From Escherichia coli (GTDB lineage Bacteria > Pseudomonadota > Gammaproteobacteria > Enterobacterales > Enterobacteriaceae): DNA of 64,000 nt. A program made the position numbers and the translations under genes. The notes under the pieces were generated by a model. The model was not told the DNA's origin, ran no database searches, and saw nothing but the letters and a program-made list of their open reading frames with translations. The stretch lies in the NCBI RefSeq assembly GCF_009931435.1, contig NZ_CP043414.1; one strand, given 5' to 3'. Positions 22,523-37,814 of this stretch are shown here, in pieces; position 1 is the first letter of the stretch, and each line of letters starts with the position of its first letter.

Positions 22523-23389
22523 CTAAGTGAGGTTCTGGTTTTCAAATTGTTCCGGACTGAGGCCGCCACACCAACTGTGCCGCCGCCACCGATTGTAATC
22601 ACATTCGATATAATTAAACACCGTTGCCCGCATTATTTCCCGGCTGATAAAGTGTTCTCCATGGATACATTCCACTTTCAGCGAATGAAAGAAGCTTTCC
22701 ACGCAGGCATTATCGTAGCAGCAACCTTTTGCGCTCATACTTCCACGCAGATTATGCCGCTTCAGTTGCGCCTGATAATCTGCTGAACAGTACTGGCCTC
22801 CACGGTCCGTGTGAACGATAACGTTCCGGGGCCTCTTACGCCGCCACAGCGCCATCTGCAGGGCATCGCAGGCCAGTTGCGCCGTCATGCGTGGCGACAT
22901 TGACCAGCCAATAACGGCACGTGACCACAGGTCAATGACCACTGCCAGATACAGCCAGCCTTCATCTGTACGTAAGTACGTGATGTCTCCTGCCCACTTC
23001 TGGTTCGGGCCACTGGCGTAAAAATCCTGCTCCAACAGATTTTCTGACACAGGCAGGCCGTGTGCGCGGTAGCTGACCGGGCTGAACTTCCGGGAGGCCT
23101 TTGCCCTCAGTCCCTGACGGAGCAGGCTTGCCGCCACGGTTTTTACGTTAAAGGGGTAACCCTGAGCACGCAGTTCATCCGTCAGGCGTGGGGCACCGTA
23201 ACGCTGTTTTGACCGGGTAAAAGCCGCGAGGACAACGCTGTCGCAGTGTTGGCGGAACTGCTGACGCGTGCTTATCCTTGTCCGCCGCTGACACCACGTA
23301 TACCAGCCGCTGCGGGCCACCCGGAGCACGCGGCACATTGCTTTGATGCTGAACTCAGCCTGATGTTTTTCAATAAAGACATACTTCAT
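22523..23389 (-). CDS. insF: IS3 transposase OrfB (InsF), DDE domain
   Basis: 288 aa, [32 protein letters not shown]..., near-identical to IS3 InsF as recalled. Confidence 0.95.
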
Positions 23390-23684
23390 TTCAGACGATT
23401 CGCAAAGTATGTCGCGGCCTTTTGGAGGATAGCCAGTTCCTCTGCCTGCTCCGCCAGTTGCCGCTTCAGGCGGGCATTTTCAGCGGCCAGTTCACTTTCA
23501 CGATCTGACGAACTCATTTGTTGCTGCAGTTTGCTGCGCCACGCATAGAGCTGTGATTCATACAGGCTGAGTTCACGGGCTGCGGCAGCAACACCGATGC
23601 GTTCAGCAAGTTTCAGGGCTTCACTGAGAAATTCAGGCGAATGCTGTTTACGGGGTTTTTACTGGTTGATACTGTTTTTGTCAT
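23386..23684 (-). pseudogene. insE: IS3 orfA (insE) with a 1-nt deletion in an A-run
   Basis: ATG at 23684 reads MTKTVSTSKNPVNSIRLNFSVKP then stop. Shifting one base after AGTAAAAA restores KPRKQHSPEF...[15 protein letters not shown] ending at 23386. The span is 299 nt, not a multiple of 3. The ORF track shows no 60-aa or longer minus-strand ORF here. Confidence 0.8.
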
Positions 23685-23851
23685 GTGAGTCACCTCTGAC
23701 TGAGAGTTTACTCACTTAGCCGCGTGTCCACTATTGCTGGGTAAGATCAAGTCTTACTTACCCTGTGAACCATGTTGATATTGATACTATATTGACTATA
23801 TGCCATACAGGTGGTAATGATTAGTTACTACCATACAGGAAAAGGTAGAAA

Positions 23852-24832
23852 ATGACTCTTTTGGTAACGGCTGAGTGTGTTGACGATCTGATAAACGATG
23901 TTCATCAAGCTATCCTAGCGGATGGACTCAGTAACGATCCTACAAAAGGATCAACTCTAGAGATTCTTGGTGCCTATCTTGTCCTTACCGACCCCCGCCG
24001 AAGAATAAGTAGAACAGAATCCCGAGGAAAACTAATTAGTTGCTTAGGTGAATTTCTGTGGTATCTCTCAGCTCAGAACGATCTTGAGTTTATAAAACAC
24101 TTCATACCACGTTACGCTGAATCCGCTGAGTCAGATGGGAAAATACATGGTGGTTACGGGCCACGGTTGTTTAATATGCGTGGTTTATATAATCAGCTAA
24201 AAAATGTCATCAACCTTTTGCAGGAGAAAAAACCTACCAGACGTGCAGTAATACAGCTTTTCGATGCCTCAGACTTGGTGCCCTCAAAAACTGAACAGCG
24301 AGAATACGTAGATATTCCTTGTACAATATCTATGCAGTTTATTGTCAGATGTGAAGAGCTGCATCTATTTGTTTGTATGCGTTCTAACGATGCCTTTATG
24401 GGGCTGCCTCATGATGTATTTGCGTTCACGATGCTACAGGAATTAGTTGCCCGCTTGATAGGATGCGAATTGGGTCACTATCATCACTTTGTATCCAGCC
24501 TACATCTCTATAAAAATGATTTAGAAAAAGTGAAGGCTCTTCAGAAAGAGGGGTTCATGAGCACCCTACCAGTCATGGGATCGATGCCTGAAATGCATTC
24601 CTTAGATGATATCTTACCCCTGCTTGAGGCAGAAAAAGCTCTTCGAGAGAATAAGGAATTTGATATTGACACTACTTCCTTGAATGACTACTGGAAGGAT
24701 TTATTGCGTATATTAAAAATCCACTTTTTGTTACGTTCACATACACCCAACCACAAAGGACTAGCCTTCCAAGAGTTGGCTGCAATGAAAAATCAGGAAT
24801 ATCGGTTTATTTTTGAAGGAAGACTACAATGA
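23852..24832 (+). CDS. thymidylate-synthase-fold pyrimidine-C5 transferase homologue (Asp at the ThyA Asn177 position)
   Basis: 326 aa. Ungapped match to the ThyA core as recalled: IPCTISMQF/APCHAFFQF, MRSNDAFMGLPHDVFAF/QRSCDVFLGLPFNIASY, LHLYKN/THLYSN, GEFLWYL/HELLWFL. Confidence 0.8.
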   Translation: MTLLVTAECVDDLINDVHQAILADGLSNDPTKGSTLEILGAYLVLTDPRRRISRTESRGKLISCLGEFLWYLSAQNDLEFIKHFIPRYAESAESDGKIHGGYGPRLFNMRGLYNQLKNVINLLQEKKPTRRAVIQLFDASDLVPSKTEQREYVDIPCTISMQFIVRCEELHLFVCMRSNDAFMGLPHDVFAFTMLQELVARLIGCELGHYHHFVSSLHLYKNDLEKVKALQKEGFMSTLPVMGSMPEMHSLDDILPLLEAEKALRENKEFDIDTTSLNDYWKDLLRILKIHFLLRSHTPNHKGLAFQELAAMKNQEYRFIFEGRLQ

Positions 24833-25773
24833 AAAGACATAATCAAATCAGTCAGCTGGTTAGTAATTTGCAAAATTTTAGCCGCAATGAACACAACCTA
24901 AATGGTCTAAGTTCTCCTGCCTGCTTTGATGTTTTAGCCTGTCAGATTATCGACAGTATACGTCGTATACGCTATGTGGAAACTCTTGCATTACGGACCG
25001 ATTATATGACTCCGTTACGAAAAGAGCCGAATTCTGATGTTTTTGATCCTCTCCGCGCTGCCTGCCTTTATCTTCGTGACAACAATTACGATGAAGCCTG
25101 CTGGCTGGTTTTCCTTGCCACACATTTCGGCAAGAGTAACAAAACCGGCTGGATTTTGTGTCGAGATATATACAGTGGACTCGGTACACAAACGTGGACA
25201 TGGGATACGATAACTGATGACTTTGCTGCTTTTGAACAATGGTTCGCCAGCGTCTCTGATGAGTTGACAGCTAACAGTAGCCTAAGACAATATGGTAACC
25301 ATCGGAAATATGAAACGAAGAAATATCACTCTCGTCGTTCAATACCTGCGGTTTTTCGCTCTTACATCGGATTCATTGGTGCTACACACAGTCATGAGGC
25401 TAGGTTTGCAGAGGCCAAGAGCTTTTCATCTTCACCAGAATCTTTATTCGAACTATTGTATTCAGGGCTAAATGCCGTGATCTCATTTGGACGAACCGCA
25501 AAATTTGATTACCTAACTATGCTCAAGAAAACGGGACTTCTGGATGTAGAGCCGGGTCATGCTTTTCTGAATGGAGCAACCGGGCCCCTTCAAGGAAGCC
25601 GGCTACTTTTCAGCAATAGCCGGACTGCTGGTGACACAATAGACGTATTGAATGAAAAACTAGCTGACCTTGCGGCAATTATTCCTGCACCCTACTTGAG
25701 AATGCAGGTTATTGAAGATGCGTTGTGCAACTGGCAGAAATCACCTGACCGTTATGTCTATTTCGGCGGCTGA
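24829..25773 (+). CDS. hypothetical protein translationally coupled to the TS-fold gene
   Basis: 314-aa ORF whose ATG overlaps the upstream stop (ATGA at 24829-24832). No motif assignable by eye. Confidence 0.6.
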   Translation: MKRHNQISQLVSNLQNFSRNEHNLNGLSSPACFDVLACQIIDSIRRIRYVETLALRTDYMTPLRKEPNSDVFDPLRAACLYLRDNNYDEACWLVFLATHFGKSNKTGWILCRDIYSGLGTQTWTWDTITDDFAAFEQWFASVSDELTANSSLRQYGNHRKYETKKYHSRRSIPAVFRSYIGFIGATHSHEARFAEAKSFSSSPESLFELLYSGLNAVISFGRTAKFDYLTMLKKTGLLDVEPGHAFLNGATGPLQGSRLLFSNSRTAGDTIDVLNEKLADLAAIIPAPYLRMQVIEDALCNWQKSPDRYVYFGG

Positions 25774-25775
25774 TA

Positions 25776-26858
25776 TCAGACGATATCTTCTTTACGGAAT
25801 CTCACTTTAAACCGATTAAGGTGAGAAAAAGGTATATTACCTTCATGCTGCAAATATCCCAGTACGATCCCTTTGGATACCCCCATTTTCCTAGCTAACC
25901 GGATGATCTCTTTCCAATGCCGGACACCATAGCGACTAAGTTGCTGCCGGTATTCTTCTGGGATAAGAACATCAACGGCAAATTTATCTGCTTCCTTTTC
26001 CTCTTCCGACGAAAGACTATCTTTACCTTCTACGCGAACTCGGACAGCTTCATGCAAGATGAGATGCCCAATCTCATGAAACAGCGTAAACCAAAAATGG
26101 TCATCGGTCAGATAACGGAAACTCATGACTAGGGTTGCGCGATCTGGTGTAAAAAAGCAGGTAGCACCACTTGCCCGACATCCCTTTGGCGTTGGCAACA
26201 CAACGAGAGAAACTCCAGCAGTGGCGAGAAGGTCGCGAATGTAAGGGATAAAAATCCTCATGTCGGGTTCATTTGTAGCTTTGCGCAGTTCTGGCAACAA
26301 TGCTATCAGCACCTCTTTATCCCATACAGCACAGTTTTGGTTTGAGGTAAGTTGTGCAGCCCTAGTCAGCCACACCAAATCGGCCATAGGCTCGGTTGCC
26401 AGATTAAGAGATTTACGAAAAGCGACCAAAGGAGCATCTGACTGAATTTTATAAAAAAAATCATTGACGGAATTTATTCCGAAAAACGATAGGCAGTGCT
26501 GGAATTTACTTTCCCGAGTTGTAGTTTTGGGGATCCAACCAAACTCCATCATATCACGTACAGGCAATGATTCGAGCCAATCATTATTCACTTTCTCGAG
26601 GTATCCAATTTGCTGGCGATAAGCGACTTCGCGCTTGATCCAGAAGTCTGTCGATACGTTGAATAACTCCTCAAGCTTACAAGCCAGAGACTCATTGAGT
26701 CGGATTTTTCCTTCAAGAAGTTGCTGACCCCGGATAAGAGACAATCCAATCCTCTTACTCAGTTCTTCACCAGAAAGCCCATGTTCATCCATTAGATCTA
26801 TAATTGTATCACCGGGTGGAGATACCCAGTCAGGCTGGAAGTCCTGCGTAACTATCAT
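25776..26858 (-). CDS. XRE-type HTH fused to an ImmA/IrrE-family zinc metallopeptidase
   Basis: 360 aa. N-terminal HTH (LSGEELSKRIGLSLIRGQQLLEG) and C-terminal HExxH (LFHEIGHLILHE). Confidence 0.8.
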   Translation of the reverse strand: MIVTQDFQPDWVSPPGDTIIDLMDEHGLSGEELSKRIGLSLIRGQQLLEGKIRLNESLACKLEELFNVSTDFWIKREVAYRQQIGYLEKVNNDWLESLPVRDMMEFGWIPKTTTRESKFQHCLSFFGINSVNDFFYKIQSDAPLVAFRKSLNLATEPMADLVWLTRAAQLTSNQNCAVWDKEVLIALLPELRKATNEPDMRIFIPYIRDLLATAGVSLVVLPTPKGCRASGATCFFTPDRATLVMSFRYLTDDHFWFTLFHEIGHLILHEAVRVRVEGKDSLSSEEEKEADKFAVDVLIPEEYRQQLSRYGVRHWKEIIRLARKMGVSKGIVLGYLQHEGNIPFSHLNRFKVRFRKEDIV

Positions 26859-27181
26859 TTCACGTCACCTATGAACACTAACCGTATCCGGCTAACTCGG
26901 GACCAGTTAATTGTATTATCTTGATTTTTGGGCTGAACTGTATTCCCACAGACAAATCCCATTTTTACATCACCGAGAATGGTAATTGTAATACACTCTT
27001 CCCCATCCTCAAAGCAGACCTCCGGCGAACCTACGGGCAACAGTAAAATGTTGTCTGTCACGGAAAGATCGGAAAGTCGCGAGCGTAGTCTTGATGCCAC
27101 TTTGTCACCAAAGATCTCATTTGCCTCATGCATACTCTCGCAAATAGTCCTTAACTTCTTGCTTTGAAAGGTAATGAACAA
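26855..27181 (-). CDS. small putative toxin (HigB/killer-protein-like N-terminus) upstream of the HTH-ImmA gene
   Basis: 108-aa ORF overlapping the downstream gene by 4 bp. MFITFQSKKLRTICES resembles the start of HigB-type killer proteins, but the C-terminal family motif is not evident. Confidence 0.4.
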   Translation of the reverse strand: MFITFQSKKLRTICESMHEANEIFGDKVASRLRSRLSDLSVTDNILLLPVGSPEVCFEDGEECITITILGDVKMGFVCGNTVQPKNQDNTINWSRVSRIRLVFIGDVK

Positions 27182-27324
27182 AATTATCCACTTTTATTTT
27201 TCTTGGTTGCTACGTTTATAGCAAACTCAACGCTCATTCACAAAATGAGATGTAGCGAATTAATGGACTCTGCACATATTAAATGTTAATGATGGACTTA
27301 AAATCACGGATTCGTAAGGGAAAC

Positions 27325-27588
27325 ATGAAAGGTAAACATCAAGACACTAAAGCCCTGTCTGACGTGCTAGCGGAAATGCAACGGCAGGATGCCAAATGGG
27401 GGGCAGACCGTAATCAAGATCCTTTTATCTGGGGAGCGATTCTCGGAGAAGAGGTGGGAGAATTTCATCAGGCTGTCCTCCATGATCGTTTTGGTGGTAA
27501 AGCAGCCGGTACCAGTAGGGAGGAAGCAGTACAAATTGCTGCTGTTGCACTGCAAATCATCGAATATTATGATCGCGTAATAGATTGA
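27325..27588 (+). CDS. MazG-like all-alpha NTP pyrophosphohydrolase (small form)
   Basis: ATG at 27325 preceded by AAGGGA. KWG....W..ILGEEVGEFHQAV...EEAVQIAAVALQIIEY fits the MazG-type EExxE metal motif and helical pattern. Confidence 0.6.
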   Translation: MKGKHQDTKALSDVLAEMQRQDAKWGADRNQDPFIWGAILGEEVGEFHQAVLHDRFGGKAAGTSREEAVQIAAVALQIIEYYDRVID

Positions 27589-27862: not shown

Positions 27863-28710
27863 GGCTCTTCCGCAACCTAGGTGGAGATTTTCATGCCAGT
27901 GGACTCATTACCCTCTGCCTAAGTAGTTCAAATCCGGCTCGACCATACATCAGACGTTTCAGCATCTTCAGGCGATTTACATGACCTTCGACAACACCGT
28001 TACTCCAGCGGCTGCTGGTTGCCTCACATATAGCCGCGGCATCAGCTTCCATCCCCGCAGCCACGCGCCGAAGTTCTGCTGAACCGTTTTCGTGGACTCG
28101 AGTGAACCAACTGCTTAGATTTGATTTATTTGGGGTTTTCAGAATACGGTAGAACTCAAGTACTAGTTGCTGCGCTATTTTCAGCGCCGGTTCTTTTTCA
28201 CACATCAGACTAATAAATCGGGAAGCATAATTTTCTTCACCCCTGATTATTATCCAGGGCATCAACCAGCGGCTTACCCGGGACACTGAAGGAAGTCTGG
28301 CGGCAGTAGTAACTGGTGGGTTCCAGCCTTTACGCCATTTGGCAACAGCATCCCTGACGATGGTTTCACTGCCTGTAACCCCCGGGCCACCATTTCCCGC
28401 CATATCCAGTCGCTGGTGTGCTGAATTGGTCATGTATGAAGGAAGATATCAATGGTGGTATCTCCCTTTCAAAAGGAAGTGAAAAGCTTGATGCCTGCTG
28501 CCAGGCAATCAATATTACGTGCTTTTAACGACTATCCTAAATGGTGGTAGCTATGCAGAGCTCCCGGTCCTAGCGCTGGGAGCTTATCGCTTATCTTTAC
28601 CGTAAGCGTAAACGGACCGCCGTATGTAGCCATTAAACCAGTATTGGTAACGTAGATACCCACCTTTTCAAAAGGGAAGTGGATAAAAGATAGCGAAAAT
28701 GCGAAGAGTT
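27863..28710 (-). mobile_element. internally deleted ISL3-family element (remnant)
   Basis: GGCTCTTCCGCA-type terminal repeat at 27863 and an inverted ...GCGAAGAGTT end near 28710. It encloses only the C-terminal part of a transposase gene. Boundaries are approximate. Confidence 0.5.
27891..28433 (-). pseudogene. ISL3-family transposase, C-terminal fragment
   Basis: 180 aa ending ...SSRWSNGVVEGHVNRLKMLKRLMYGRAGFELLRQRVM, the conserved ISL3 transposase C-terminus. The N-terminal half is missing. Confidence 0.75.
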
Positions 28711-35295: not shown

Positions 35296-36918
35296 ATGAA
35301 ATTAACTAAACTTGTACTTGAAAATTTCAGATCTGTTAGAGAGCGGCAGGAAATTGATTTTGCACCTGTAACATTACTATTGGGGCCAAACAGCGCGGGC
35401 AAGACTACTATTTTAATTGCATTATTTTATCTTCAACAAATATTAGACCGTGAGCAGTGTGATCCTATATATTTAGAAGCTATGGGGAACAGGCGCATAG
35501 ATGGATTTAGATCTCTAGTCCATAATGGGGATCTGAATAATGTAATTACTATTGGTATCGGTTTCGATCCTGAACAAACAATAGGTGTAGAATATAAAAC
35601 ATATTTAGAAGAACTTGGTGATATTTTCGATATTCATTTTATAAAAATGAAAGACATTGCAGATGAAACTGAAAAGGTTTATGTAGAATTTAAAATCGCA
35701 TGGTCACAATTGCACAGAGCAGCATATATAAAGAACTATGCTGTTTCTATAAATAATGAATTTATTGGAGAGCTAAGTAATGATGAGTATACTAAATCAT
35801 CTTTAGTAAATAGATTGAACTTTACTCATCCGTTGCTTCTTCCTATTGATTATAATTTATGGCTTGAATCTATTGATAAGGAAGGATTAGATACGATTGC
35901 CAGTGAATTTGAAATATCTTTAAATGACTTAATTCCTGGCTTAGAACGTAATAAAAGTGGTGCAACAGAGCGAGTAAAAACTGTTGATTATATATTTGAA
36001 GAAGATAAAGAAAAACCAATGTTTCCTGTTTTTTTAAAGACGAAAATTGGTGCGTTACCTCAACTGGGAAGAACTGTTGATACAAATTTGAAAGTTTTTG
36101 ATATATCCGAGCCAGTTGAGTATTTTAATCGAGATATAATCACCAGAGTGCTAACGCAAGTTTTTACTTCTCCGTTAGATAAATTAAATAATTATTTAAA
36201 GGCTAGCGTATCTATTGGACCGTTAAGAATTATACCTGATTCTTCATTTACGCCAAATCCTTATCCAGAACAAAATGGATGGTTTGATGGTACATCAGCA
36301 TGGGATAAGCTGTGTTTATCTCAACAAAATGATAGTGATTTGATTAAAAAAGTAAGTGATTGGTTTTCCAATAGAGATAAACTAAACACTAATTATAATA
36401 TATTTAGTGGAGGAGAATTTGATATAAAAACCTCCCCTCAACTTTTAGGTCTGAAAGATAATGTTTACTTCTGTAAAATAGATTCAAGCCAAATGTTATT
36501 TCCAAATCAAGTCGGTGTCGGATTAACTCAGATAGCACCTCTTATTATTGCAGCCAATATAGTTCAGGATGGATTAATTGCTATAGAGCAGCCTGAGCTA
36601 CATATTCATCCCGCTTTACAACTCGCTGTAGGTGATCTGTTTACCCAATATCCCCTTGATGTTAAAAGACCTATGTTTTTAGTCGAAACACATAGTGAGC
36701 ACATTTTGCTTCGAATTTTAAAAAGAATTAGACAAACAACGGACAATGAATTACCTGAATCAAATTACCCAGTAAAACCTGATTTTATATCAGTGATCGT
36801 TTTCGAGGATAATAATGGTTCGACTGTTACTAGGAAAATAGATATTACTGATGATGGTGACTTCAAACAAAAATGGCCCAAAGGTTTCTTCGAAGAAAGA
36901 AGGGGAGAGCTTTTTTAA
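35296..36918 (+). CDS. ABC/AAA_15-21-type ATPase (OLD/PtuA/AriA-like nucleotide-binding architecture)
   Basis: 540 aa, starting 8 bp after hsdS. Walker A GPNSAGKTT, Walker B/D-loop IAIEQPELHIHP, H-loop ETHSEHIL, with a long insertion between the Walker motifs. C-terminal KWPKGFFEERRGELF. Confidence 0.75.
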   Translation: MKLTKLVLENFRSVRERQEIDFAPVTLLLGPNSAGKTTILIALFYLQQILDREQCDPIYLEAMGNRRIDGFRSLVHNGDLNNVITIGIGFDPEQTIGVEYKTYLEELGDIFDIHFIKMKDIADETEKVYVEFKIAWSQLHRAAYIKNYAVSINNEFIGELSNDEYTKSSLVNRLNFTHPLLLPIDYNLWLESIDKEGLDTIASEFEISLNDLIPGLERNKSGATERVKTVDYIFEEDKEKPMFPVFLKTKIGALPQLGRTVDTNLKVFDISEPVEYFNRDIITRVLTQVFTSPLDKLNNYLKASVSIGPLRIIPDSSFTPNPYPEQNGWFDGTSAWDKLCLSQQNDSDLIKKVSDWFSNRDKLNTNYNIFSGGEFDIKTSPQLLGLKDNVYFCKIDSSQMLFPNQVGVGLTQIAPLIIAANIVQDGLIAIEQPELHIHPALQLAVGDLFTQYPLDVKRPMFLVETHSEHILLRILKRIRQTTDNELPESNYPVKPDFISVIVFEDNNGSTVTRKIDITDDGDFKQKWPKGFFEERRGELF

Positions 36919-37814
36919 TGTTCTACGAATGCGCCATTTCACCAGAGGCTTTGTTTGAGATCGCAATTGATCGGAGAAATTATCGTGACTTCATAAAAGG
37001 ATTTTCTACGGGCGGTAACTTTCTCTATAGTGAATTACCAAAGCTGAAGAGAAATAAAAAACAATTGCTTGGGCTATTAAATGCTAATCATAGTGAACTT
37101 CAAAAAAAACGATTAGAGGACCTTATTATTTTTTTGAAAAATAATAAGGTTAGTAGGGTTTATGATTATGTTGGTGACATGTCATGGTCAGATAACATCT
37201 CTGCTGTAAATCGAATTGAACAATTTGATCATGTAGTGAGTTCTACTCCTTGTGATAACCTTGATGTAACTAATATAGATGATTTCTTTGGGTTAAATTA
37301 TGCTCGGCAAAAAATTGTTGCTAGAATTGCTGAGGATATGATATCTATAATCTCACGCTTATTAAAAACATCAGAGCATATTATTATAGTTGACCCATAC
37401 TTTAGTGACAAACAAAGATGGTGGAATGTATTTATTTCATTACTTAGCGTTAGTGCTAATAACTCTTATAAAAAAAATTTAAAGATAGATGTTATATTTG
37501 ATGGGAGTAAAGAAAACTCCCCAACGGTGAATTATTTGGCTAATAAGTTGAACCGCGAAAACCTTGTCTTTCCAGACGATTTTAAATTATCAGTAACATT
37601 TAAGTCTTTAACTTCTCGCGAGGGTAATGAACGTCTGCATAATAGATATGTTCTTTCTAATGTTGCTGGAGTTTGTTTCATGCATGGTTTAGATGAGGGA
37701 GAAGGAACGGATGATGTCTCAATTTTGTCGAAAGAGGGATATAATAAAAGATGGGAACATTACACTACGAATAATGTTTTTGATTTAATAGAAGAGCGTG
37801 AAGTTATATGTTAA
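36918..37814 (+). CDS. hypothetical partner of the ATPase (possible PLD-fold-like C-terminal module)
   Basis: ATG at 36918 overlaps the ATPase stop (TAATG). 298 aa. C-terminal pattern IIIVDPYF ... LHNRYVLSN..G..FMHGLDEG. No Toprim, HNH or HEPN motif seen. Confidence 0.55.
   Translation: MFYECAISPEALFEIAIDRRNYRDFIKGFSTGGNFLYSELPKLKRNKKQLLGLLNANHSELQKKRLEDLIIFLKNNKVSRVYDYVGDMSWSDNISAVNRIEQFDHVVSSTPCDNLDVTNIDDFFGLNYARQKIVARIAEDMISIISRLLKTSEHIIIVDPYFSDKQRWWNVFISLLSVSANNSYKKNLKIDVIFDGSKENSPTVNYLANKLNRENLVFPDDFKLSVTFKSLTSREGNERLHNRYVLSNVAGVCFMHGLDEGEGTDDVSILSKEGYNKRWEHYTTNNVFDLIEEREVIC

Follow-up and report, generated by a model that had tools for sequence, protein, structure and literature searches.

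Is a small gene that overlaps the gene for a helix-turn-helix (HTH)-metallopeptidase fusion protein the toxin of a self-contained toxin-antitoxin pair, or is it part of a larger system? The question is raised by a two-gene module in a 64,000-nucleotide stretch of Escherichia coli DNA (contig NZ_CP043414.1 of RefSeq assembly GCF_009931435.1), which we refer to as the window. In this module, a HigB-like gene precedes a gene whose product joins an XRE-type HTH to a zinc peptidase of the ImmA/IrrE kind, and the pair is convergent with an operon for a thymidylate synthase (TS)-fold enzyme and an aGPT-Pplase3 protein. Gene pairs of this class are known but mechanistically unsolved. What is new at this locus is the obligate coupling of the pair, across phyla, to a cytosine-type hydroxymethylase and an aGPT-Pplase3 protein.

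A first-pass annotation of the window had reported a 108-aa open reading frame (ORF) that overlaps a 360-aa ORF by 4 bp. Both ORFs can be read in the sequence, as can the ATGA tetranucleotide in which the ATG of the fusion gene overlaps the TGA of the small gene. The tetranucleotide couples translation of the two genes, and a Shine-Dalgarno (SD)-like AGGTGA lies 6 nt 5' of the fusion-gene ATG. The toxin-first order of higBA, noted at the same stage, is seen together with this 4-bp coupling. Position 25773 is the last base of the aGPT-Pplase3 stop codon, and 25776-25778 hold the stop codon of the fusion gene; the stops described as 3 bp apart thus have two bases between them. The bases of the island from 25700 to 27300 are found on the E. 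coli chromosome at ≥99% identity in 230 of 5,426 complete genomes (4%) and at lower identity in 4 further complete E. coli genomes.

RefSeq names the fusion gene "XRE family transcriptional regulator", and the 467 bp that contain the small ORF carry no annotation in the E. coli records inspected. Therefore, homology-based defence finders see only an "XRE family regulator" here. The small ORF is nevertheless under purifying selection: its ratio of nonsynonymous to synonymous substitution rates (dN/dS) is 0.15-0.25 in frame versus 0.95 and 1.8 in two control frames. Its TTG start, an SD-like AAGTGGA 5 bases 5' of the start and the reading frame are kept in Escherichia, Yokenella, Raoultella, Enterobacter and Citrobacter. 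When 1.84 billion representatives were searched with the family profile, 871 clusters matched (50% identity, E≤1e-3), most of them about 105-111 aa long and aligned from residue 1 onwards, which favours the TTG start over an internal ATG at codon 17.

The fusion protein has confirmed relatives in at least 491 GTDB species representatives. Associations were counted in the best 80 loci of each scan (35-100% identity), and the counts describe this subfamily and not all Xre-M78 fusions. The 80 loci from species representatives cover Pseudomonadota, Acidobacteriota, Bacteroidota, Chloroflexota, Planctomycetota, Verrucomicrobiota, Spirochaetota and others. The first-pass annotation had named, among the grounds for refutation, a small ORF that is not conserved upstream of homologous fusion genes; the small ORF is conserved there. 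Among the 80 loci fetched with the peptidase, 77 carry a homologous small ORF directly upstream of the peptidase gene, and in 74 of 79 loci it reaches into the peptidase start or is no more than 3 nt away.

The HigB-like character given to the small protein at first sight is borne out by structure. Profile and structure searches, suggested for the 108-aa protein by the same annotation, gave a HigB fold besides the family of 871 clusters. In Foldseek, the AlphaFold2 model (mean predicted local distance difference test, pLDDT, 94.9) has as its top match in the PDB the HigB chains of Proteus vulgaris (template-modelling score 0.63/0.72, probability 1.0), followed by YoeB, RelE and YafQ. Sequence signals are fainter. 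PF05015 (HigB-like_toxin) is weakly matched by 9 of 92 relatives, with a best E of 0.0011, and no other family recurs. The small protein has no Pfam match at E≤1 and no NCBIfam or PADLOC match, a PADLOC scan of the 92 relatives gave nothing recurrent and no PD-Lambda-2_A match, and a PDB sequence-profile search returned chance matches only (E above 0.6). Aligned by hhalign with a single HigB sequence, the small protein scores weakly (probability 12%), with a sensible N-terminal alignment. A bridge is provided by a RelE/ParE toxin on a Deinococcus plasmid, which scores above the PF05015 cut-off and matches the small-protein profile at E 1e-12; its gene adjoins, on the upstream side, a distant relative of the fusion protein. 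Therefore, the HigB-fold model and the bridging toxin together place the small-protein family as a divergent branch of HigB. As modelled, the small protein is a divergent PF05015-type HigB with a RelE/HigB fold, whose sequence homology is only transitive, through the Deinococcus plasmid toxin.

The catalytic residues of P. vulgaris HigB are H54, D90, Y91 and H92, and the PDB lists Y91A and deltaH92 variant structures of that protein. None of the four has a conserved counterpart in the small-protein family; the weak hhalign alignment pairs H54 with E54 of the small protein. The missing C-terminal RelE/HigB motif remarked on in the first-pass annotation is indeed missing: the small protein ends in ...IGDVK, and the C-termini of the family are variable and lack DYH. 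Judged from these alignments, the known catalytic residues of HigB have been lost. In the family, R11, R35, D38, W93 and R98 are conserved, and an insertion of about 18 residues (79-97) bears family-specific conserved positions.

The fusion protein is built as had been described, an XRE HTH followed by an ImmA/IrrE peptidase with an HExxH motif. Pfam HTH_3 matches at 23.9 bits (cut-off 23) and Peptidase_M78 (PF06114) at 42 bits (cut-off 22), with a helical middle region between the two domains. The HTH also matches TIGR02607 (antidote_HigA, NCBIfam) at 22.5 bits, below its cut-off of 47.7. Its best structural matches are the HigA proteins of P. vulgaris, E. coli and Coxiella, including P. vulgaris HigA bound to DNA (6chv); it also resembles CapH, DdrO and ImmR, and C.BclI and C.AhdI are among its matches. 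In the peptidase, the HEIGH motif occupies residues 261-265 (nt 26064-26078), and H261, E262, H265 and E287 do not vary in either of two sets of homologues (18 and 90 sequences). E287 is likely the third zinc ligand, and by these residues the active site is intact and predicted to be competent. The C-terminal half is structurally closest to CapP/IrrE (PprI), in an alignment to CapP that covers only 132-180 residues. A GAF domain was not found in the fusion model, whose chain ends 20-30 residues past the peptidase domain.

Between the two domains lies a low-confidence linker with the motif A-F147-R148-(K/T)-S150, in which F147, R148 and S150 are at least 90% conserved among 90 sequences. CapP cuts CapH between F82 and R83 (PMC13228613), and by analogy F147-R148 is a candidate (auto)cleavage or docking site.

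A HigA-type Xre HTH is thus encoded directly downstream of a HigB-like gene. Both proteins have their best structural matches within a single complex, P. vulgaris HigBA, one in each chain. On the models, the module therefore derives from HigBA: it is a HigB/HigA pair whose antitoxin has gained a zinc peptidase.

The convergent TS-fold operon had been recorded in the first-pass annotation as a neighbour of the pair. The convergent layout stands; that the operon is a mere neighbour does not, since it is a near-obligatory partner across phyla. An aGPT-Pplase3 homologue is present in 66 of the 80 peptidase-fetched loci and a TS-fold homologue in 62, always on the opposite strand and just downstream of the peptidase gene. 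The gap between the stops of the peptidase and aGPT-Pplase3 genes is mostly -4 to +20 nt, with a 4-nt overlap in 15 loci. Pairwise identities of the two proteins are correlated (r = 0.81); the observed Spearman coefficient is 0.73, and the maximum over 200 label permutations was 0.24. The corresponding correlation is 0.73 for the peptidase and the small protein and 0.64 for aGPT-Pplase3 and the TS-fold enzyme.

The association was also examined in reverse, in 80 metagenomic loci picked by aGPT-Pplase3 similarity and, likewise, in viral loci from IMG/VR. The convergent peptidase and small genes are present in all 60 metagenomic loci whose downstream sequence is 1.5 kb or longer, the TS-like gene in 45 of the 47 with 2 kb or more upstream, and the peptidase in 27 of 27 IMG/VR loci with enough flank. 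The forward and reverse counts, together with the co-variation, led us to reject island packing as a coincidental source of these neighbours. The whole cassette is also found on one Pantoea plasmid and one Leptospira interrogans plasmid, and in prophage-like contigs.

The dependence is not mutual. In 14 of the 80 loci, the pair occurs without the TS-like and aGPT-Pplase3 genes and other cargo lies 3' of the peptidase gene on the same strand. Such cargo includes SIR2 with HerA, an N6/N4 DNA methylase and a DEAD-box helicase; examples are L032:5014-8183 (a Spirochaetes metagenome-assembled genome), L043:5078-6832 and L078:4992-7178. Because the same-strand cargo varies, the pair seems to be a transferable front end that serves various defence cargos, and because this aGPT-Pplase3 clade was never seen without the pair while the pair has other partners, the dependence is asymmetric. 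More distant fusion relatives (25-29% identity), found on plasmids and in one phage, have upstream of them a canonical PF05015 toxin in which DYH is kept. Their third gene, on the same strand, varies: in Deinococcus it encodes Fic, in Thauera and in an Achromobacter phage a protein of unknown kind. The pair is thus the more general module, and within a mobile cassette of four or five genes it is the half that is best conserved. With the TS-fold operon as a near-obligatory partner across phyla, the unit is this cassette and not a self-contained pair. The coordinates of its parts in the window are collected in Table 1.

Table 1. Position of the cassette genes, protein domains and nucleotide-level features in the window.
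Feature	Position	Strand	Remarks
TS-fold gene	23852..24832	plus	closest to MilA CMP 5-hydroxymethylase
aGPT-Pplase3 / amino-acid:DNA-transferase-like gene	24829..25773	plus	PF18746, E 4.8e-90
HTH + M78-peptidase fusion gene	25776..26858	minus	360 aa, ATG start (ORF list)
Peptidase_M78 domain, residues 237-332	25863..26150	minus	Pfam
Low-confidence linker, residues 142-155	26394..26435	minus	pLDDT <50
HTH domain, residues 21-73	26640..26798	minus	Pfam HTH_3
Small HigB-like gene	26855..27181	minus	108 aa, TTG start (ORF list)
ATGA overlap of small-gene stop and fusion-gene start	26855..26858	minus	plus-strand bases "tcat"
Perfect palindrome TTGCTA-N6-TAGCAA	27207..27224		26 nt 5' of TTG start; candidate HTH operator
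MazG-like gene	27325..27588	plus	divergent from small gene; RefSeq "MazG-like family protein"

What chemistry does the partner operon specify? Its two genes overlap by 4 bp and form one operon. In a phmmer search of the PDB, the TS-like protein matches MilA (5b6d) at E 1.6e-41 and thymidylate synthases at 1e-18 or weaker. In thymidylate synthase and the T4 dCMP hydroxymethylase, the residue at the position of E. coli ThyA N177 sets the preference for cytosine or uracil. The catalytic Cys and an Asp at this position are invariant in 57 of 57 TS-like sequences, and the invariant Asp points to a substrate with cytosine, not uracil. The RefSeq name "thymidylate synthase" for 23852-24832, with its Gene Ontology term "dTMP biosynthesis", is probably wrong. 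For the second enzyme, a PDB profile search gave no match. The aGPT-Pplases are glycosylase-like proteins with a helix-hairpin-helix; those of clade 2 are amino-acid:DNA transferases with an essential Cys, and relatives act on DNA bases in phages (PMC8989533). Clade 3, to which the protein of the window belongs, has an invariant Cys300 in the motif EDALCNW that resembles the essential Cys of clade 2.

Two further genes accompany the operon in parts of the family. In about half of the loci (about 40), an extra gene for a protein of about 266 aa, here called protein X, lies between the TS-like and aGPT-Pplase3 genes (for example, L013:6007-6807, L012:5143-5949 and L163:6012-6815). Protein X has the invariant motifs ATLGLNPSNREF, ACHLDL.P and NHN.QSSFG, is absent from E. 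coli and other Enterobacteriaceae, and has no Pfam match and no significant PDB profile match; as a guess, its GLNPS motif may mark a fold like that of uracil-DNA glycosylase. The other is the MazG-like gene. It has no Pfam match, so that its name rests on RefSeq, and it adjoins the pair in only four loci of the 80, all enterobacterial; it is possibly an Enterobacteriaceae-specific accessory of the cassette. The combination of a MazG-like protein with a cytosine-type hydroxymethylase recalls gp56 (dCTPase) and gp42 (dCMP hydroxymethylase) of phage T4, where gp56 supplies the monophosphate to gp42.

Nucleotide-level signals around the two operons are few. The palindrome upstream of the small gene occurs in exact form only once in the window and does not vary among five enterobacterial genera. 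The intergenic region in which it lies is 92% conserved overall, and copies with up to two mismatches do not occur above chance. It is a weak candidate, read from sequence, for an operator bound by the HTH. A scan for inverted repeats 5' of the small gene gave none of 8 nt or longer, and sigma-70 and terminator scans yielded no more sites than expected and detected no terminator where the genes converge. In a comparison of E. coli with Raoultella and Enterobacter (L003/L004), synonymous divergence (dS) is 0.37 for the small gene and three times as high, 1.12, for the peptidase gene. This low rate, with the 92% identical intergenic region, suggests a recombination breakpoint near the junction or constraint at the nucleotide level.

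Upstream of the TS-like start, a direct repeat seen by eye, CCATACAGG, occurs twice 28 nt apart (starts 23802 and 23830). The two copies flank an imperfect inverted repeat, GGTGGTAA-N7-TTACTACC (region 23800-23845, plus strand). The repeats of 23800-23845 could be an operator, one unlike the palindrome upstream of the small gene. A frameshifted IS3-family element (22523-23719) lies between a dGTPase gene and the cassette and ends about 130 bp 5' of the TS-like start. In E. coli, the original promoter or operator of the TS-like and aGPT-Pplase3 genes may have been displaced by this element, or its place taken by it.

The first-pass annotation had called protease-containing pairs of this kind sparsely characterised, which understates what is on record. 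Makarova et al. (2009) described RelE or PIN genes in operons with Xre-COG2856 fusions and predicted a three-component toxin-antitoxin system (PMC2701414). Their pair is of the same class as the one in the window, a RelE-family gene with an Xre-zinc-peptidase fusion. They predicted a regulatory cascade and did not name the third component, and the TS-like/aGPT-Pplase3 partner is not described there. The closest validated system is PD-lambda-2 from E. coli ECOR42, which consists of a HigB-like protein A, a HigA-peptidase protein B and a P4 beta-like protein C (Vassallo et al. 2022, PMC9519451). In PD-lambda-2, B is toxic by itself and is neutralised by A, and defence also requires C (PMC9519451). 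The fusion protein matches the PADLOC model PD-Lambda-2_B (PDLC03982) at E 3.3e-30, with residues 15-341 aligned to 60-378 of the 402 model positions. Both systems lie in E. coli accessory regions and have a small HigB-like gene first, followed by an Xre/HigA HTH-ImmA/IrrE (PF06114) fusion. They differ in that PD-lambda-2A is assigned to PF09907, whereas the small protein here is PF05015-type, and neither it nor its 92 relatives match PF09907 or the PADLOC A model. They also differ in that a same-strand PD-lambda-2C gene (PF14350) is absent here and the convergent TS-like/aGPT-Pplase3 operon is found in its place. Of the three PD-lambda-2 components, the cassette thus has the counterpart of B and lacks those of A and C. 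A third same-strand gene equivalent to PD-lambda-2C was considered and rejected, as the next gene in the window is the convergent aGPT-Pplase3 gene; a conserved same-strand downstream ORF was not found in the 80 loci. A search of the literature available to us found no mechanistic follow-up on PD-lambda-2.

Two other kinds of system invite comparison. With P. vulgaris (Rts1) HigBA the pair shares the toxin-first order, the overlapping genes and an HTH that aligns to HigA at 27-28% identity. P. vulgaris HigA, however, is a 104-aa protein without a peptidase, and the fusion protein has 260 further residues past the HTH; the small protein likewise departs from P. vulgaris HigB in having no conserved H54, D90, Y91 or H92 and in carrying the extra insertion at 79-97. 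In CapH/CapP, IrrE(PprI)/DdrO and ImmR/ImmA, peptidase and repressor are separate proteins and the peptidase has a GAF domain that senses single-stranded DNA (ssDNA). Unlike systems of the CapH/CapP kind, the fusion is one chain with an N-terminal HTH and no GAF, has an extra HigB-fold partner and is encoded convergently with its cargo.

DefensePredictor (Science 2026) bears on the cassette from another side. That study lists WP_000174035.1 as a predicted novel defence gene with a log-odds of 7.6 (PMC13092281), and this is the TS-like protein of the window. It also highlights an unvalidated aGPT-Pplase system containing a homologue of a known defence gene, and the domain key of the figure, common to eight highlighted systems, includes an HTH (PMC13092281); that system may be the present cassette. 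The validated DS-4 system described there is a case of defence by a TS-fold enzyme together with phage-type hypermodification enzymes (PMC13092281). Its composition differs: TS, a deoxynucleoside monophosphate (dNMP) kinase, a 5-hydroxymethyldeoxyuridine (5-hmdU) DNA kinase, TIR and NMAD.

How might pair and enzymes work together? The reading that we favour, to which we would give about an even chance, is that a protease switch derived from HigBA controls a pyrimidine-modifying effector, probably against phages. The pair would be the control or sensor half of the cassette and the enzymes the effector half. In the resting state, the fusion protein would bind DNA through its HigA-like HTH while the small HigB-like protein restrains the peptidase, by analogy with the neutralisation of B by A in PD-lambda-2. 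A signal derived from phage or from damage would free the peptidase, which would then cut a substrate, most plausibly its own F147-R148 linker, in cis or across a dimer. The conserved F147-R148 in a disordered linker and the cleavage of CapH at F82-R83 are the grounds on which a single-chain, self-cutting repressor-peptidase is proposed; such self-cutting would be the one-chain version of CapP cutting CapH at F-R, or of ImmA cutting ImmR. Cleavage would switch on the TS-like/aGPT effector arm, in which 5-hydroxymethyl-(d)CMP would be made from (d)CMP and then modified further. The MazG-like pyrophosphatase of Enterobacteriaceae may feed these enzymes with monophosphate. As a result, pyrimidine pools would be drained or corrupted, or DNA corrupted, and phage replication would be blocked.

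A bolder form of this proposal is possible, although we hold it only tentatively: that a switch derived from HigBA governs a bacterial, non-phage form of pyrimidine C5-hypermodification by a MilA-like (d)CMP hydroxymethylase and a helix-hairpin-helix aGPT-Pplase3 transferase, in which an effector induced by infection drains or poisons the cytosine nucleotide pool or chemically marks phage DNA as it replicates, a HigB-fold protein that was once an RNase toxin has been recycled as an inhibitor or sensor for the protease, and the fusion is a self-cleaving repressor.

Several points weigh against the protease-switch reading. Whatever is said here of toxicity, proteolysis, DNA binding or phage protection in this subfamily is inference. 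Losing the known catalytic residues of HigB is not proof of lost activity, as R11, R35, D38, W93 and R98 are conserved and the active sites of the RelE family vary, and PD-lambda-2A belongs to a different HigB family (PF09907), so that its role in rescue may not transfer to the small protein here. The fusion peptidase lacks the GAF domain by which CapP and IrrE sense ssDNA, and the two operons are convergent, unlike those of the divergent CapH/CapP-type regulators. A second copy of the palindrome was not found near the TS-like gene. Nor was a shared operator found between the regions upstream of the small and TS-like genes (61 loci), for which a crude exact-word test that degenerate sites may escape gave 7.8 nt versus 7.3 nt after shuffling. 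Finally, as said above, the association counts speak for the subfamily sampled by the best 80 loci of each scan.

If the pair were instead a classical, self-contained type II HigBA system, the small protein would be a translation-dependent RNase toxin and the fusion protein its antitoxin and autorepressor, and the two would serve addiction or abortive infection and stabilise the enzyme genes. This would account for the toxin-first order with a 4-bp overlap, for the match of both proteins to the two chains of the P. vulgaris HigBA complex, for the canonical RelE/HigB toxin with its C-terminal DYH upstream of more distant fusion relatives, and for the upstream palindrome, which autoregulation predicts. 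It would, however, leave a conserved and intact peptidase without a role, and it agrees poorly with a small protein that has no conserved counterparts of HigB H54, D90, Y91 and H92 and has a variable C-terminus. The only tested relative, PD-lambda-2, has a toxic fusion and a rescuing HigB-like protein. The linkage of aGPT-Pplase3 to the pair is one-sided but complete (87/87), with stops that abut across phyla, which exceeds hitch-hiking, and the peptidase co-varies with aGPT-Pplase3 as strongly as with the small protein. We regard a classical HigBA as unlikely. The assignment of toxin to the small ORF and antitoxin to the fusion, which the first-pass annotation had drawn from the higBA order, therefore survives as anatomy and not as the default reading of function: in PD-lambda-2 the polarity is reversed, and the small protein lacks the catalytic residues of HigB.

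The resemblance of the peptidase to CapP and PprI, and of the HTH to CapH, DdrO and ImmR, raises another alternative, in which the fusion is purely a transcriptional switch of the ImmR/ImmA or CapH/CapP kind in one chain, without any toxin, and derepresses adjoining cargo upon damage or infection. The F-R motif in a disordered linker, like the cleavage site of CapH, would fit, as would the varied defence cargos that the pair adjoins (SIR2-HerA, methylase, helicases and Fic). Yet the genes converge with overlapping 3' ends and share no divergent promoter, shared operators were not detected among the 61 loci by the exact-word test, and the chain has no GAF or ssDNA-sensing domain. A pure switch would also give no role to the strictly conserved, coupled HigB-fold partner and would not explain why PD-lambda-2B is toxic alone; we think it quite improbable. 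Very improbable, in our view, is a self-modification cassette of a mobile element, similar to restriction-modification (R-M) or anti-restriction, whose enzymes hypermodify pyrimidines of their own or the host DNA and for which the pair is the controller or the toxic arm. The closest solved relative of the TS-like protein, MilA, works on free CMP in antibiotic biosynthesis, and the cassette contains no nuclease, 5-hmdU DNA kinase, dedicated polymerase or dNMP kinase. What speaks for it is that aGPT-Pplase relatives act on DNA bases in phages (PMC8989533), that tight convergent gene pairs with an Xre HTH like that of "C-proteins" recall R-M systems (C.BclI and C.AhdI being among the HTH matches), and that the cassette occurs on plasmids and in prophage-like contigs.

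The surroundings of the cassette are those of a defence island: a dGTPase defence gene, a type I R-M system and an AriA/NsnB-like ATPase gene flank it. The last of these, an ABC/AAA ATPase gene (35296-36918, plus strand), matches the PADLOC models PDC-M55A, NsnB and AriA and is overlapped by a gene for a 313-aa protein without a match (36873-37814, plus strand). Both lie directly 3' of hsdS; together they could be a distinct defence system of two genes embedded there. A transposase fragment (27891-28433, minus strand; a frameshifted partial pseudogene in RefSeq) marks a junction of island modules, between the MazG-like gene and hsdR.

PD-lambda-2 showed that a HigB-like protein with an Xre-peptidase fusion can defend E. 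coli, with the roles of toxin and antitoxin apparently reversed. The protease-switch cassette described here is a widespread natural variant that offers handles on the PD-lambda-2 mechanism: (i) a HigB-fold partner without the catalytic residues, (ii) an F-R linker motif that suggests intramolecular cleavage of the CapP-on-CapH type, and (iii) an enzymatically tractable cargo. If the cassette defends, phage-style base-hypermodification chemistry would join the nucleotide-centred branch of bacterial immunity, and this would explain the existence of the aGPT-Pplase clade in bacteria.

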